64,000 nucleotides of DNA. Source: Mobula birostris (lineage: Eukaryota). The translations under genes and the position numbers were made by a program. Positions 13,652 to 63,064 of the stretch are shown here, piece after piece. Position 1 is the stretch's first letter. Every line of letters starts with the position of its first letter. The stretch covers positions 23,319,289 to 23,383,288 of the forward strand of contig NC_092396.1 in NCBI RefSeq assembly GCF_030028105.1, read 5' to 3'. The notes beneath the pieces were generated by a model, which did no database searches, was not told the origin of the DNA, and saw only the letters and a program-made list of their open reading frames with translations.

Positions 13652-14355
13652 TGAATTGAATTGACTTTATTTCTTACATCTTTCACATACATGAGGAGCA
13701 AAAATCTTTACATTACGTCTCCATCTAAATGTGCAATGTGCAATCATAGTAATTTATAATAATTTATAATAAATGGAACAGTCACTGTAACATAGAAATA
13801 CACTCAAATCACCGTGAATTAATCAGTCTGATGGCCTGGTGGAAGAAGCTGTCCCGGAGCCTGTTGGTCCTGGCTTTTATGCTGTGGTACCGTTTCCCAG
13901 ATGGTAGCAGCTGGAATAGATTGTGGTTGGGGTGACTTGGGTCCCCAATGATCCTATACACCTGTCTTTGTAAATGCCCTGAATCATGGGAAGTTCACAA
14001 CTACAGGTGCGCTGGGCTGTCCGCACCACTCTCTGCAGAGTCCTGCGATTGAGGGAAGTACAGTTCTCATACCAGGCAGTGATGCAGCCAGTCAGGATGC
14101 TCTCAATTGTGCCCCTGTAGAAAGTTCTTAGGATTTGGGAGCCCATACCAAACTTCCTCAACTGTCTGAGGTGAAAGCGGTGCTGTTGTGCCTTTTTCAC
14201 CACACAGCTGGTGTGTACAGACAACGTGAGATCCTTGGTGATGTTTATGCCGAGGAATTTAAAGCTGTTCACTCTCTCAACCCCAGATCCATTGATGTCA
14301 ATAGGGGTTACCCCGTCGCCGCTCCTCCTGTAATCCACAACCAGCTCCTTTGTTT
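13652..14355 (-). mobile_element. Young Rex1/Babar LINE 3' end inserted in the CR1 tail
   Basis: ORF 13877-14338 VERVNSFKFLG...FYRGTIESILTGCITAWY; (ATTCA)n tail. Confidence 0.9.
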
Positions 14356-22011: not shown

Positions 22012-22581
22012 CAGACATCCCACCCTGCAAAAACTCATTTCAGGGAGGTAGCATCATCAATTTGCGGGAGACTTCCAGGAGAGGTGGGATGTCTGCAATA
22101 GAGTAGCTCCTTAGCAGCCGGCCAGCTAGTTTAAATAACGTTAGCTACGCTAATGAACGAATGACACCTGTTAAACTCACCTCAACATGTCTTTTACATT
22201 TTAACGCACCATGGGCAATAGAAAACTCACTGTTGCAAACAGTGCAGCGAGCAACCCTGTCATTATTTTTTACCCCTATTAGGCAGGGGTACACTTGAGG
22301 GTAGTCTGGGGTGACGTACGTTTCATATTTTCTTTTTTTGGAACATTCTGCCATGGCGCGCGCTCTCTCTCACTTGCGTACTCTGTCTCTCATGGTTGCT
22401 TTCGCGCTCACTTTCTCTCTCACGCTCGCTCTCGTGGTCGCTTTCTCTTACTTTCTCTCTCACACTCGCTCCCTCTCCAAAAAATTGATTTCCGGGACAT
22501 TGTATATAATTTGCGGGCATCAGGGATCCACTATTAATATACAGGAGACTCCCGGAACTTCCAGGAGAGGTGGGATGTCTG
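22012..22581 (-). mobile_element. hAT-family non-autonomous element carrying a BED-type zinc-finger exon remnant
   Basis: TIR CAGACATCCCAC/GTGGGATGTCTG; perfect 6-bp TSD GAAACC (22006-11, 22582-87); ORF ARCTVCNSEFSIAHGALKCKRHVE|gtgagt. Confidence 0.75.
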
Positions 22582-22819
22582 GAAACCTATTAAATATTGA
22601 AAGGTCCAGACAGAGTGGATGTGAGGAGGATGTTTCCTATAGTGAGTTAGTCCAGGACTAGACTCAGAATAGCCTCACAGCCTCAGGATAGAGTTGTCAT
22701 CCATTAAGAACAGAGATGAGGAGGAATTTCTTTAGCAAAGGATGGTGAATCTATGGAATTCATCACTACAGGTGACTGTGAGAGCCCAGTCAGTGGGCAT
22801 ATCTAAAGCAGAATGCTAT

Positions 22820-22990
22820 TAAGACAAGGTTGGGTAGATTTTTGCATAGTAGGGGAAATACGGGTTACAGGGAAAAGGCAGGAAGGTGGAGATGAGCCCA
22901 TGGTCAGATCAGCCATGATATTATTGAATGGTGGAGCAGGCTCCACAGGCCAGATGGCCGACTCCTGCTCCTATTTCTTATGTTCTTATG
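22820..22990 (+). mobile_element. Short CR1 3' end at the position expected for the Gypsy 3' LTR
   Basis: ctcctgctcctatttcttatgttcttatg tail. Confidence 0.8.
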
Positions 22991-23272
22991 CTTTGTTTTA
23001 TAATTCCAGACTCCAATTCAATATAGAATGTACCTCAACCATATACACAATTTACTATATAATAAGACTACTACACAGCCATCCACAACGTAGTCAATTT
23101 TAACTTGACCCATTCAGGCCTAAGGATTTAATCGCTGTGTAAGATTTCTTACTCTTGTGGGATAATGTCTTTCCTGACAATGGAGATCACTCTGCTTGGC
23201 AGGTGAGACTTGTGGCCATGGAAACGATCTGAAGCCTCCTCCATGATGTGTGTAGGAGTTGACCCTGAGACT

Positions 23273-23742
23273 GCAGGGGCACAATTGAGAGCATCCTGAC
23301 TGGCTGCATCACTGCCTGGTATGGGAACTGTACTTCCCTCGATCTCAGGACTCTGCAGAGAGTGGTGTGGACAGCCCAGTGCATCTGTGGGTGTGATCTT
23401 CCCACTATTCAGGACATTTACAAAGACAGGTGTGTAAAAAGGGCCCGAAGGATCATTGGGGACCCCAGTCACCCCAACCACAAACTGTTCTTGCTGCTAC
23501 CATCCGGGAAATGGTACTGCAGCATAAAAGCCAGGACCAACAGGCTCCGGGACAGCTTCTTCCACCAGGCCATCAGACTGATTAATTCATGCTGATACAA
23601 TTGTATTTCTATGTTATATTGACTAGCCTGTTGTACATACTATTTATTATATATTACTATAAATTGCACATTTAGACGGAGACGTAATGTAAAGATTTTT
23701 ACTCCATGTGTATGAAGGATGTAAGTAATAAAGTCATTTCAA
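23273..23742 (+). mobile_element. Young Rex1/Babar 3' end (same family as 13652-14355)
   Basis: GTIESILTGCITAWYG...RLRDSFFHQAIRLINS. Confidence 0.9.
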
Positions 23743-23755
23743 GAATTTAAATGGT

Positions 23756-25178
23756 TCTCTCAGCTCTGGGATCTGTTTTGATCCTTGCCTCTCTCCCGGT
23801 CGCGGCTTCTTTCCTTCTCTTTATCTCGCTCCTTTTCTTTTCACATTCCGTCTCTCTTTCTGAATTCCGGTTAAGATGGCAGCAATGAACACAGACAACA
23901 ACTCTCTGGTAGTTAAAAAGCCAAGAAATCTGACTAAAAACATCAATAAAAATACCTTCACTGACATAAATTGTGTTAAATTATCGCGGCAAGCAGCGAA
24001 GGGGTGAGCAATAGCAAGGTGAGTTTGGGGGACGAGCTGAGATGGCGTGTTGCACAATCGTTCCGATGCCCGTACAGCTGGCCTGGGAGTGACGTTAGAT
24101 CACTCTGGGAGCCGAAAGGAGAAGTTGAGGCCCAGGCAGAGGAGATTCAATTTTGATGGCTGAACAACCGGCCCGGATGCAAATTTGGATCGATCTGGGC
24201 ACCGAGCTGATTTGAAGATATTGAGAGCTGCTACGGGCTTGGCAGTGAAATCTGGGCCAGGAGCGAGTCGCTGGGCGGTGTGGTCTGGGTTCTGAGACTT
24301 TCGCTGCAGTGGTGCCCAGGTCCTAGTGTGAGGTACGATTTGCTGTTTAGACGATTTAAACACCAGCCAGGTTGGAGGCGAGAGCTGATTTTGCTCACTT
24401 TCCACAATGGTCACCCCTCTCCCCACGGTGCTAAGGCTATGAAGACAGCACCCGGCTGCTGTGCTCAGTGGCGCAAATATAATGAACTGATAAGTGAGCC
24501 TTTGGGCCTACTCTGGGTTCTTTCAGGTTTCTTGCTTTGTGGCTACCTGTGAGCAAGCAAATCTCAGGGTTGTATAATTTATACTTTCTTTCCTAATAAT
24601 TGTACTTGAATCTTGAATCTTTCACTCCTTTCTCTTTCCCACTCACATTCTTTATCTCTATCTCTTCTCTCAATTTCTACAACTTGCCTTTCTTTTTCTT
24701 CTTCAAGCTTCTTGTGAGTATCGGGGAAATTGCTGATTTATTGAGAAATTTGGTCTTGTTTGTCCTCTTCCATTTCCATAGCACTCATGCCATCTTCCTC
24801 TTTCTTTTCCTTTTTTCTTCTTTCTAGTTTGTCCATCTTGATGTTGGGGAGGTACATTTGGTTCACTGGAGTACTCTCTTATTAATCCTTCTATTGTTCC
24901 CTTTATGATTTGACCTCTGCTCTTGGTTTTCTCATCCACAGCATCATCTGATGAATCCTCTGTTTTTGTATCTCCATTGACTCCTTTCCTTTTGACCTTC
25001 CATTCATCCGGCTGGGCTTTGGTCTTTGCATCTACTTTTTTAAGCAGCTTTTTGTCTTCCATTTGAAGTTCATGCAAAAGCGTTAAGGAACACAGAGTAG
25101 ATCCTGATTGTTAATGCTCACAAAAGCTTGCAACTTTCCCGAAGCTCTTTGAACTCTCTTCCAGCTTAAAATCAAGCC
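23756..25178 (-). pseudogene. RBM25: Processed RBM25 fragment (second half of RRM to RE/RD-rich region), interrupted by an insertion at 23861-24617
   Basis: GLILSWKRVQRASGKLQAF/CEH*QSGSTLCSLTLLHELQMEDKKLLKKVDAKTKAQPDEWK...IKGTIEGLIREYSSE...MEMEEDKQDQISQ*ISNFPDTHKKLEEEK...KERSRDRERGKDQNRSQS versus recalled human GLVLSWKRVQGASGKLQAFGFCEYKEPESTLRALRLLHDLQIGEKKLLVKVDAKTKAQLDEWK; no introns; stops and frameshifts. Confidence 0.92.
23861..24617 (+). mobile_element. Non-autonomous LINE-tailed retroelement inserted into the RBM25 copy
   Basis: 5' ttccggttaagatggc; (TTGAATC)n tail; TSD TCTTTC at 23855-60 and 24618-23. Confidence 0.8.
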
Positions 25179-26322
25179 TTATTTTGTGGAATGACTGAAA
25201 TAGCCAAGCCAGTGTCCAATTCCATTTTAATTAATTTGCCGTTCACTGCTGGTGTAAGCCATTTTGCTGGTCTCTTGTTAATTTTACATTGTAAATCTCT
25301 TGGCTATCAGTCCTGTGACACTCACATCATTATTAGATCTTTCTTCAACATCTCTTTGAAATTGCAATTTGACTTTTTATCTTTTTCTCTTCCCTGTGCT
25401 GTCCATTTATTTTTGTCTGCCTAGCATGCTGTTTGTATGTGTCCTACTTTGTTGCACTTTCTGCAAGCTTCACCTTTATGCATTGGTCTTGTGTATGTCA
25501 GCCCCTGCCACAATGGTAACACATTTGTTCAGTCAGGCAGTTTCTGTTTAGACATTGCAGTTTTGTTCAGCCTCACTTTCATTCCTGACTGCAACACATT
25601 TGTGTCTATGTCAGCAGTTTCCATTGATACAGCTGTTCTCAATTGCTCTTTAAAATATAAGTTGTACTTCAGTTAGGAAACATTTTTGATATTTTTGTAG
25701 GATTCCATAAACTAAACAATCTCTCATTGCGCCATTAAGCCTGTTCCCAAATTGACAATGCTTAGACAATTTCTTCAATTCAACCACATATGCTGAAATG
25801 AACTCTCTTTCTTTTTGATTCTGATTATGAAACCTAAAGTGTTCTGCAATCAACAATGGTTTAAGTTCTAAATATTCCTGCATTGCTTTCACGACATCAG
25901 CAAAGCTAATTTTGGCTGATTTGGTTAGAGCAGTCAAACTTCTAAGCAAACTGTGTGCCTTGAATTCCAATGTACTCAGCAAAACTGGCACTTGCTTTTC
26001 ATTGCCGATTTCATTAGTTCTAAAATACTACTCAATTTACACAGTGTACAATATCCCATTATCTCATGTGCAATCAAACACGTCTATCTTTCCAATGTAG
26101 CCAGACATTAATGTTTTTTTTAATTTATGATTATTATCACCCGGTACTCACTGTTTATAAAACTGTGAATTTCATCCATTTTCTACTTTCTCAAACTCAA
26201 CCATGTTTGTCCCACCCTGAAGAAGCATGTGCTGTGCTTCTTTTTTTTTAACCTGAATGCCTCACTACACTTCAACAGGTAGCTAGTCAATCCGGGTTCA
26301 TTTAAAACTCCCTCATTTCTAT

Positions 26323-26550
26323 TGTTATGTTTTTAAACTCCAAAATATAAAACTAATTGAAAGGAAAACAAGGGAGCCAAGAGATAACGTGTGTAGTTTT
26401 GTTTTTACTTTAAGCATTATGACATATGCAATTCACTTATTTTTACATATAGCCCCTAACTAATGAATTATTTAAATGAGGAAGAATGGTTAATGTAACA
26501 GTATATTTACAATATTGCTCAGATACTACTGAAATATTAAATACACAACA
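26323..26550 (-). repeat. 5' LTR of the Gypsy element
   Basis: TGTTGTGTAT...CATAACA termini followed by a degenerate PBS-like ATAGAAATGAGG. Confidence 0.7.
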
Positions 26551-27689
26551 CAAAGTTTGATAGGTTCTTGGCTAGTCAGGGCATCAAATGTTACAAGGAG
26601 AAGGCAGGTGAATGGGGTTGAGAGGGATAACAAGTCAGCCATGATAGAATGACAGAACAGACTTGATGGGCTGAGTGGACTCATTCTGCACCTATGTATA
26701 TAGATAAGAACATGGACAGGAGGGGTTTTATCAATACATGTAGAGGAAGCTGGCTCATTGGGTAACACAGTCAACGTCGATGTGTTGGGTCAAAGGACCT
26801 TTGCCTTGCTGTGTGACTCCGTATGGCTTCAAGAATGACAAAGACAACAGGTTGCACATTATCCTGATTTGGAAATATTTCACCAGTCCTTCACTGTCGC
26901 TGGATCCCAATCCTGGAACTCCCTGCCCAACCACATTGAAGGAGCACATTCATCCGAGGACTACAGTGCTTCAAGGATGTAATTCCCCGTCACCTTCTCA
27001 GGGGCCCTTGGGCGAGGGCATTAAATGGTGGCTTTGTTGGCAATGCCCAGGTATGTCCTCCATGAACCTATTGGCTTTTTAAAGGAGAATTTATATTCTA
27101 TAAACTATATGTAGCTTTAAGTCCCAGCAAAGTATCTAATGAAGTCTCACGGAAGCGATCACCCTACCAGACACTCGTTAAATCCACTCCTACTCGTTAA
27201 CGACCACTGAACTCCCAAGGGAACCATGTGTAACAAAGGAGATTTTGTAACAATTAAGTGTAATGTTTAAACCACTCCTATCCTGCTTCATCTATCCGTC
27301 TGGGGAAGTTCTTTCACTCATAGAAGCCTTGTTCAACAGGTCTCATTGTATGCGATCAAAGATCCAATTTGCAAACCCACTCATTGGAACCGTGGCTTAC
27401 AGGGGTTTGCCTTCCTTGACCGCTCTGCTGGTAAATTAAATTCAGTTTGAACAGGCCCTGGCCTTTAAACAAATGCTCTTAGTTTTCTTAAATTTCCATT
27501 TACAATAAAAAAAAGCAAGTTTGTCTCAGTGCGGAGCAGCTCAAGTTGCTTATTACAAATCGCAGCTGGTGACCCATCTCCCGTAAAGTTCCCTGGGACT
27601 AAATGCGCTGGAGTCATTCACAGCTTGGAAGCTGATCCAGCAGACAGTCGAAGCATCAGATTCTAAAAGGGCAAAATTTGGGCACAGGC

Positions 27690-61469: not shown

Positions 61470-63064
61470 GGCATGCAGAAGTTTGGACATTTTTGGTCAA
61501 CAAATTCTGTTACTGTGAATAGTTGAGTAGAAGATAAACTGATCTCCAAACGTCATAAGGTTAAAGATGAAACATTCTTTTCAACATTTTAAGCAAGATT
61601 AGTGTATTATTTTTGTTTTGTACAATTTTAGAGTGGAAAAAAAAGGAAAGGAGCACCATGCAAAGGTTTGGGCACCCCAAGAGATTTGAGCTCTCAGATA
61701 ACTTTTACCAAGGCTTCAGACCTTAATTAGCTTGTTAGGGCTATGGTTTGTTCACAATCATCATTAGGAAAGGCCAGGTGATGCAAATTTCAAAGCTTTA
61801 TAAATACCCTGACTCCTCAAACCTTGTCCCAACAATCAGCAGCCATGGGCTTCTCTAAGCAGCTGCCTACCGCTCTGAAAATTAAAATAAATGATGCCCA
61901 CAAAGCAGAGAAGGCTATAAGAAGATAGCAAAGCGTTTTCAGGTAGCCGTTTCTTCAGTTCGTAATGTAATTAAGAAATGGCAGTTAACAGGAACGGTGG
62001 AGGTCAAGTTGAGGTCTGGAAGACCAAGAAAACTTTCCGAGAGTACTGCTCGTAGGATTGCTAGAAAGGCAAATCAAGACTTCCGTTTGACTGCAAAAGA
62101 CCTTCAGGAAGATTTAGCAGACTCTGGAGTGGTGGTGCACTGTTCTAATATGCAGTGGCACCTGCACAAATAATATCTTCATGGAAGAATCATCAGAAGA
62201 AAACTTTTCCTGTGTCCTCACCACAAAATTCAGCATCAGAAGTTTGCAAAGGAACATCTAAACAAGCCTGATGCATTTTGGAAACGAGTCCTGTGGACTG
62301 ATGAAGTTAAAATAGAACTTTTTGGCAGCAATGAGCAAAAGTATGTTTGGAGAAAAAAGGGTGCAGAATTTCATGAAAAGAACACCTCTCCCAACTGTTA
62401 AGCACAGAGGTGGATTGATCATGCTTTGTGCTTGTGTAGCAGCCAGTGGCACGGGGAACATTTCACGGGTAGAGAGAAGAATAAATTCAATTAAATACCA
62501 GCAAATTCTGGAAGCAAACATCACACCGTCTGCAAAAAAGCTGAAGATAAAGAGGATGGCTTCTACAACAGGATAATGATCCTAAACACACCTCAAAATC
62601 CACAATGGACCACCTCAAGAGGCGTAAGCTGAAGGTTTTGCCATGGCCCTCACAGTCCCCCGAACTAAACATCATCGAGAATCTGTGGATAGACCTCAAA
62701 AGAGCAGTGCATGCAAGGCGGTCCAAGAATCTCACAGAACTAGAAGCCTTTTGCAAGGAAAAATGGGCGAAAATCCCCCAAACAAAAATTGAAAGACTGT
62801 CAGCTGGCTACAGGAAGTGTTTACAAGCTATGATACTTGCTAAAGGGGGTGTCACCATGCAGGGTGCTCAAACTTTTGCTTTGGGCCCTTTTCCTTTTTT
62901 GTTATTTTGAAAATGTAAAAGACGGAAATATAAAAGTAATCTTGCTTAAAATATTAAAGAAATGTGTCATCTTTAACTTTACACCTTTTGGAAATCAGGA
63001 CATCTTTTACTCGCTTAGCTATTCACAGTAACAGAAACTTCGACCAGGGGTGCCCAAACTTTTG
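61466..63064 (+). mobile_element. Full-length Tc1 transposon with ~200-bp IR/DR-type TIRs
   Basis: CAGTGGCATGCAGAAGTTTGG left end; right end ggggtgcccaaactttt; internal direct repeats at ~61660 and ~62860. Confidence 0.92.
61845..62860 (+). pseudogene. Tc1 DD34E transposase, disrupted
   Basis: MGFSKQLP..RSGRPRK..VLWTDEVKIELFG..QQDNDPKHTSK..WPSQSPELNIIENLW; frameshifts and a stop. Confidence 0.92.

Follow-up and report, generated by a model that had tools for sequence, protein, structure and literature searches.

How coding sequence of the host gene RBM25 came to lie inside a Gypsy retrotransposon, and whether it was of use there, is the question raised by one locus of Mobula birostris. The locus lies in a stretch of 64 kb (NC_092396.1:23319289-23383288; C32 in our analysis of the 4.0-Gb genome), here called the window, and coordinates without a contig name are positions in this window. 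The element is very probably a decayed member of a non-autonomous Ty3/Gypsy family whose reverse transcriptase (RT), RNase H and integrase are replaced by spliced RBM25 sequence. This arrangement most likely goes back to a single event, a double template switch involving co-packaged host mRNA; the hybrid was then likely copied by the enzymes of pol-bearing relatives. A first-pass annotation of the same DNA had described a chimera of host sequence between long terminal repeats (LTRs), with RBM25 in place of these three enzymes. That description holds; the capture junction named with it does not.

The captured segment is spliced RBM25

The window frame at 24706-25110 matches RBM25 proteins with a best E value of 1.4e-25. 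Among 379 candidates, 135 matched at E ≤ 0.001, and the top named matches were RBM25. Comparison of this frame with PDB and Pfam gave nothing significant. A C-terminal protein query located the host RBM25 gene on C1 at about 154.44-154.49 Mb; the C-terminal part that was not captured matches this gene alone in the genome. A genome search with the Pfam PWI domain failed as a route to the host gene and found two other genes instead, which we take to be SRRM1 and PRPF3. The host exons, delimited by splice sites and numbered by our own scheme, join to one open frame. The host protein is identical to a Heptranchias perlo record in 196 of 203 residues.

Host introns at the captured junctions measure about 1-7 kb. 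The window copy crosses the junctions E5/E6, E6/E7, E7/E8 and E8/E9 without introns, and its two RBM25 segments are 83% and 87% identical to the host. The segment is thus spliced RBM25, as first proposed, and poly(A) and target-site duplications are absent from its ends, again as proposed. A 48-nt exon, 3b (C1:154450900-154450947, L041), is present in the host gene and in the Heptranchias protein; the four proteins compared from bony fishes and birds lack it. The element preserves an old mRNA that included exon 3b.

The true switch points are shared by the family

The first-pass annotation had placed the capture junction at 25178, at an out-of-frame join on a shared AAAT word. Four chimeric copies aligned to the window carry 479-518 extra bases at this point, with an AAAT(G) word on either side. 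The extra sequence comprises the remainder of the protease, then the linker and exons 3, 3b and 4 of RBM25. Among 29 other top-scoring loci, every one that keeps gag-pro has sequence at 25178 that is absent from the window, typically about 500 bases. With up to 3 mismatches allowed, the 33-mer across the join has a single match in the genome, which is the window locus itself. The out-of-frame join is a secondary deletion of about 510 bp, private to the window copy, and the single genome-wide match excludes both that it marks the capture site and that it founded a subfamily. An independent capture by the window copy was ruled out as well: its RBM25 part has the family letter at 13 of the 16 columns where family and host differ, plus the derived pair at mRNA positions 752/753. 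It is therefore family-derived and not a fresh capture.

The true 5' switch lies about 280 bases beyond the 25178 join along the parent element, directly after the protease and 10 nt short of the end of host exon 3. It is in frame. Parent and host share the 7-nt word TGCCACA at this point; the chimera follows the parent before it and the host after it. The 3' switch lies about 28 nt into host exon 10, directly after the integrase, and is out of frame. Here, exon 10 and the post-integrase tail of the parent share the 9-nt microhomology GAGAAGAAA. Random joins share at least 7 letters at a frequency of 8e-4 and at least 9 letters at 9e-5.

The captured piece comprises the final 10 nt of exon 3, the exons that follow and roughly the first 28 nt of exon 10, and includes eight splice junctions. 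These were analyzed in 92 chimeric loci; the window copy, duplicate fetches, a segmental duplicate (L113) and loci with a deleted or too diverged junction were left out of this sample. Gapless crossing of the eight junctions was observed in 81, 77, 81, 88, 79, 34, 30 and 28 of the 92. Coverage of the host mRNA starts at position 161 and ends near 1235; position 151 is covered in 1/92 loci and position 1251 in 0/92. Neither poly(A) nor a duplication nor the 3' part of RBM25 was found in any of the 92 chimeric loci. Parent sequence ahead of the 3' acceptor was found in none of 36 chimeras. Between the switches pol is missing, which measures about 2.8 kb in the pol-bearing copies L152 and L153. 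A search with the protease only returned 29 other loci, 5 of which run on into RBM25 and nearly all others into pol.

Parent family, copy number and movement

The pol-bearing copies hold LTR, gag-pro, pol, the same tail as the window and LTR within one element. The tail at about 23010-23277 therefore belongs to the same family as gag-pro, as had been assumed. In these copies the domains RVT_1, RT_RNaseH, Integrase_H2C2 and rve score above the cut-off, in the Gypsy order protease-RT-RNase H-integrase. LTRs of the form TG...CA, the primer-binding site and the polypurine tract are preserved across copies; we presume that the primer site matches tRNA-Ser, one of the two tRNAs (Ser, Leu) expected at the primer site of Mag-clade elements.

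A 21-nt pattern of the chimeric 5' junction gave 621 matches at up to 1 mismatch, the corresponding pol-type junction 1,266, and reversed controls none. At least 621 copies thus share one 5' junction, and the amplified non-autonomous family suggested by the first-pass annotation exists. The pattern was passed by 8 of 25 chimeric loci that had been picked through other queries, which extrapolates to about 1,900 copies; candidate counts at a first look were 2,676 and 2,239. We estimate the chimeric family at about 2,000 copies, and chimeras at a sixth to a third of the whole Gypsy family. Thirty loci anchored in the tail comprised 16 with the full pol junction, 6 pol deletions at the same acceptor, 7 RBM25 chimeras and 1 unclear case.

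The first 60 of 100 listed exact matches to the chimeric junction were used to analyze movement. Both LTRs lie inside the fetched stretch in 26 of these 60. The paired LTRs differ by a Kimura two-parameter (K2P) distance of 0.21 (0.13-0.27) in 20 loci with at least 120 aligned bases, or about 0.10 per LTR since insertion. Target duplications with 4-5 of 5 matching letters were found in 6 of 14 loci with locatable ends, compared with 2% by chance. The chimeric copies moved as a unit. Among 59 distinct loci of this sample, exons 8-10 are missing from 25 and partly retained in 24; the other 10 are unclassed. This short form is likely a sub-lineage that went on spreading, because it is tied to one allele pair. 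Its deletions hold no single frame (5, 7 and 12 of 24 in the three classes).

Several further observations were made on individual copies. Derivatives with deleted pol (L174, L178, L184, L194, L200; L063, L064, L072, L077, L079, L080) rejoin at the purine-rich acceptor of the RBM25 chimera. They use at least two donor sites, at the RNase H start and in the integrase zinc finger, and the acceptor is a recurrent switch or deletion site. Copies L112 and L113 (C3: 126.80 and 126.94 Mb) show identical match patterns on opposite strands, 130 kb apart, and are likely a segmental or assembly duplicate. In the chimeric copy L145, part of the RBM25 cassette lies in tandem repeat.

Reading frame, selection and timing

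Upstream of the switch, no stop is the commonest codon in any of 447 codon columns of the chimeras, against 48 and 36 such columns in the other two frames. Downstream, the same is true over 208 RBM25 codons. Since the switch is in frame and consensus stops are absent, the founder had a single open gag-pro-RBM25 frame. In copy L133 an open frame still crosses the junction, with 124 + 44 codons.

The family differs from the present host at 27 of 624 columns. Sixteen codons differ synonymously, about 0.12 per synonymous site; CpG decay inflates this and the other distances given here. Another 12 codons differ non-synonymously. Seven of these differences involve a CpG of the host codon context, and the sole non-synonymous one at high frequency matches Heptranchias. 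The gag-pro tree, built from the 61 of 92 rows with at least 760 bases, is star-like, with terminal branches of 0.149 and internal branches of 0.006. Capture and burst were thus close in time, because the synonymous distance to the host resembles the decay per LTR and the tree is a star. A published rate of 7e-10 per generation (PMC10587355) cannot be converted to years for this family. Only 7 of 1,394 gag-pro columns separate chimeras from pol-type copies, five of them within one short stretch.

The RBM25 part has a ratio of non-synonymous to synonymous change (pN/pS) of 0.84 per copy and 143 stop codons. Judged by these sequences, the copies appear to have decayed nearly neutrally. Shared RBM25 variants outside CpG at the 20% threshold comprise 6 non-synonymous and 2 synonymous ones, with 27% synonymous expected. 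No synonymous excess was found among shared variants at three thresholds (p 0.41-0.79) in what is a weak test.

A SUDS3 family and reads of other organisms

A second Gypsy family in the same genome carries SUDS3, with 114 Sds3 matches among 150 scored candidates. At 14 of 15 loci examined (L202-L216, e.g. C22:13627273-13630794) gag or protease lies upstream, and in all three loci translated SUDS3 is in frame after the protease linker. At the protein level, gag and protease are 44-52% and mostly 28-41% identical to those of the RBM25 family. The SUDS3 copies are about 90% alike, and some hold open frames of 300-650 codons. It is a separate, younger family with the same layout.

Reads of nine other organisms share words with the window locus, and four of them were compared. 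Organism B gave pieces of 95-99% identity over unique parts, including the boundary between tail and CR1, and organism C one piece over the 5' LTR boundary. Because these reads cross boundaries of the element, the insertion is likely older than the split of the B and C lineages. In all four organisms summed depth was about 3,000-29,000 in the RBM25 bins and in the tens to hundreds in unique ones. Although depth does not measure copy number, the high values are consistent with an amplified family. Among 25 matches to the junction peptide in annotated proteins of other species, none covered more than 60%. Longer proteins gave no match to a Gag-Pro-RBM25 fusion, which is weak evidence.

Mechanism and alternative explanations

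In the explanation that we favor, RBM25 would have been captured once, during a burst of the parent, when reverse transcription switched twice, onto co-packaged host RBM25 mRNA and back. The hybrid would have spread since it kept all cis signals and an open gag-pro frame, with RBM25 as a passenger that was shortened step by step. All examined copies would have decayed afterwards, and later deletions would have removed the true 5' junction and most of the 3' LTR from the window copy.

Several points weigh against this explanation. For template switching on co-packaged RNA, the basis is published work and not these sequences. The tree is an unresolved star that places the chimeras in no single clade, and single origin therefore rests on shared junctions and alleles, not on phylogeny. 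The copy number was extrapolated from the best-scoring, hence less diverged, copies. The selection test at the 20% threshold depends on just 8 variants, and among gag-pro variants common to the chimeras, synonymous ones are slightly in excess at one threshold out of three (19/50, p=0.04).

An unlikely alternative is that the cargo was useful to the element, either as an in-frame Gag-Pro-RBM25 product or as RNA that aided expression, stability or packaging, and so drove amplification. The lack of consensus stops over 447 columns upstream and 208 RBM25 codons downstream would fit this, as would single copies such as L133 that read through the junction, the retention of the RRM exons in long and short forms, and the independent SUDS3 family with its cargo in frame at the same linker between protease and RT. 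However, a sense join in frame is expected by chance in 1 of 3 cases, the short-form deletions keep no one frame (5, 7, 12 of 24), and shared RBM25 variants are without synonymous excess (p 0.41-0.79). Pure pol deletions with the same 3' acceptor (6/30 loci) were amplified too, so the cargo was not required for spread. Because the selection test is weak, useful cargo is disfavored, and not more than that.

The remaining two alternatives concern how RBM25 arrived. A processed pseudogene made by a long interspersed element (LINE) might have inserted in a Gypsy copy, with later deletions trimming both ends into the present junctions before the hybrid spread. LINEs are abundant in the window, and microhomology deletions are common in the RBM25-Gypsy family, the window copy included. 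Yet this route is very improbable: it needs two further precise deletions that both landed in microhomology between host and parent, poly(A), a duplication and the 3' part of RBM25 are found in 0/92 loci, and the genome is without a C-terminal RBM25 retrocopy. Least probable of all is that there was no single founder and that RBM25 mRNA was captured many times independently at a recombination hot spot. Such captures could account for the re-use of the 3' acceptor by pol deletions and the dispersal of chimeras over the tree, and a recurrent switch site is described for BLASTOPIA (PMC5131818). The tree, however, is an unresolved star, and the 5' switch point is uniform. Copies, the window copy included, share alleles at mRNA 752/753 that the host lacks, and no other host gene was found among the 29 protease-anchored and 30 tail-anchored loci.

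Structure and later damage of the window copy

The order on the minus strand given by the first-pass annotation, from 5' LTR through gag with two zinc knuckles and the start of the protease to RBM25 and the Gypsy tail, was confirmed from the sequence. The element splits a CR1-type LINE and is flanked by a 5-bp duplication (CAGAA / CAAAG). The features are as follows.

26551..26555, no strand: target-site duplication, 5 bp, one copy, CAAAG on the plus strand, inside the split CR1-type LINE
26323..26550, minus: 5' LTR, TG...CA, 228 bp; the same LTR is found at both ends of other copies
26311..26322, minus: primer-binding site, decayed; better preserved in other copies
25424..26108, minus: gag with stops and frameshifts; CCHC knuckles at 25521-25480 (contains a stop) and 25465-25424
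25181..25270, minus: aspartic protease, N-terminal part, DTG motif
25178..25184, minus: breakpoint of the private microhomology deletion; it took with it the end of the protease, the true 5' switch point and exons 3-4 of RBM25
24618..25184, minus: captured RBM25 cDNA, intron-free, exons 5-8 and the first part of exon 9 (second half of the RRM, linker, start of the RE/RD region)
23861..24617, no strand: later insertion of 757 bp with a GAAAGA duplication
23764..23860, minus: captured RBM25 cDNA, end of exon 9
23752..23769, minus: 3' switch region with the beginning of the Gypsy post-integrase tail; the longest form in the family has about 35 bases more
23278..23751, plus: later LINE 3' fragment, 85% identical to window 13656-14120
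23009..23277, minus: Gypsy post-integrase tail and 3' non-coding sequence; pol stop at 23122-23120
22989..23008, minus: last ~20 bases of the 3' LTR, read from sequence; 15/20 letters match the 5' LTR end
22819..22988, minus: later CR1-type 3' piece, ~170 bp, 88-91% identical to copies elsewhere
22809..22813, no strand: target-site duplication, 5 bp, other copy, CAGAA on the plus strand

The window gag matches Pfam PNMA at E 2e-4, below the cut-off, and is 76% identical to a pol-bearing copy; the complete protease of L133 matches Pfam RVP at E 0.002, also below the cut-off. The polypurine tract and most of the 3' LTR are deleted from the window copy, and three later insertions interrupt it. 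The LINE fragment carries the label Rex in the first-pass annotation, and we presume the same identity. That annotation was right that a Gypsy tail follows RBM25 but began it only after this fragment; the tail starts at about 23769, before the LINE piece (~23751-23278). Likewise, the inner insertion stands, with its end corrected from 24623 to 24617. One end of this insertion is high-copy and its interior low-copy. The CR1-type piece at about 22819-22990 has sharp ends and may be a short mobile family in its own right.

The window is full of decayed LINE pieces. No host gene was found around the element: Pfam searches on 29 long open reading frames of the window returned mobile-element domains only, and short exons could escape such searches. 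An element of about 520 bp at 22060-22585, with 28-nt direct repeats (22071, 22557), interrupts the host LINE, and similar sequence lies inside L084. A DDE_3 transposase fragment (E 2e-11) lies at 62551-62907, with inverted-repeat-like matches at 61476-61677 and 62862-63064.

Comparison with known systems

Defective retroviruses that transduce oncogenes carry spliced host coding sequence in frame behind gag and depend on helpers for replication. The RBM25 family differs from these in that it is without env, is fixed in the germ line and gives no evidence of cargo selection.

LTR-mediated retrocopies are described by Tan et al. 2016 (PMC5131818) with microsimilarity at the switches of 6 bp in the median. 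As in those cases, a partial spliced mRNA replaces part of an internal open reading frame with microsimilarity at both switches, here 7 and 9 letters, and both LTRs are present while poly(A) and target-site duplications are lacking at the mRNA ends. Secondary retroposition with common switch points and a recurrent return site are further likenesses. In its features the RBM25 structure agrees with LTR-mediated retrocopies and not with LINE-made pseudogenes, as the mRNA ends are without poly(A) or a target-site duplication of their own and the mRNA 3' end is not kept, coverage stopping in exon 10. In contrast to the cases described there, which are young and occupy one to few insertion sites (18 sites for nine fly retrocopies), the RBM25 hybrid is old, has an estimated 2,000 copies and has its own deletion sub-lineage. 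Maize Bs1 (PMC5131818, PMC13317346) likewise is an LTR element with host cDNA replacing pol, common switch points and a fused frame. Unlike Bs1, with 1-5 copies, three donor genes and a product that is transcribed and translated, the RBM25 family draws on a single donor, runs to thousands of decayed copies and gives no indication that a product was kept.

The parent family resembles Mag-lineage Ty3/Gypsy elements (PMC3286476) in its short LTRs, a length of about 5 kb, the 5-bp target-site duplication and the order of the pol domains. Nearly all Mag rows in table 1 of that paper list a 5-bp duplication. The parent family is therefore a candidate member of the Mag clade, as a lead only.

Our literature search found no paper on the RBM25-Gypsy family. 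The main text of the Vertebrate Genomes Project preprint mentions neither RBM25 nor SUDS3; its supplementary retrocopy tables may list them. The accounts of animal LTR-captured genes (PMC5131818) and the plant review (PMC13317346), as far as they cover such spread, describe secondary spread to few copies only. The mechanism is already known; what is new is the scale, the age and the pair of in-frame captures.

A broader proposal would be that Gypsy elements of cartilaginous fishes repeatedly gained by trading pol for a nuclear regulator joined in frame at the protease-RT linker (RBM25, and SUDS3 in a sister family), with a Gag-Pro-cargo polyprotein that was made and helped spread against host RNA processing or silencing. 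We regard this as rather improbable. If true, this would be the germ-line parallel to retroviruses that transduce oncogenes, with amplification to thousands of copies.

For genome annotation, the family is a hazard: its copies can be mistaken for RBM25 retrocopies or genes, or repeat masking can hide genuine RBM25 exons because of them. A host exon cassette turned into a repeat family makes the fate of captured cargo measurable, from the founder through shortening sub-lineages to selection. With two independent in-frame captures at one linker in one genome, the question whether such cargo is passenger or helper becomes testable from sequence alone.

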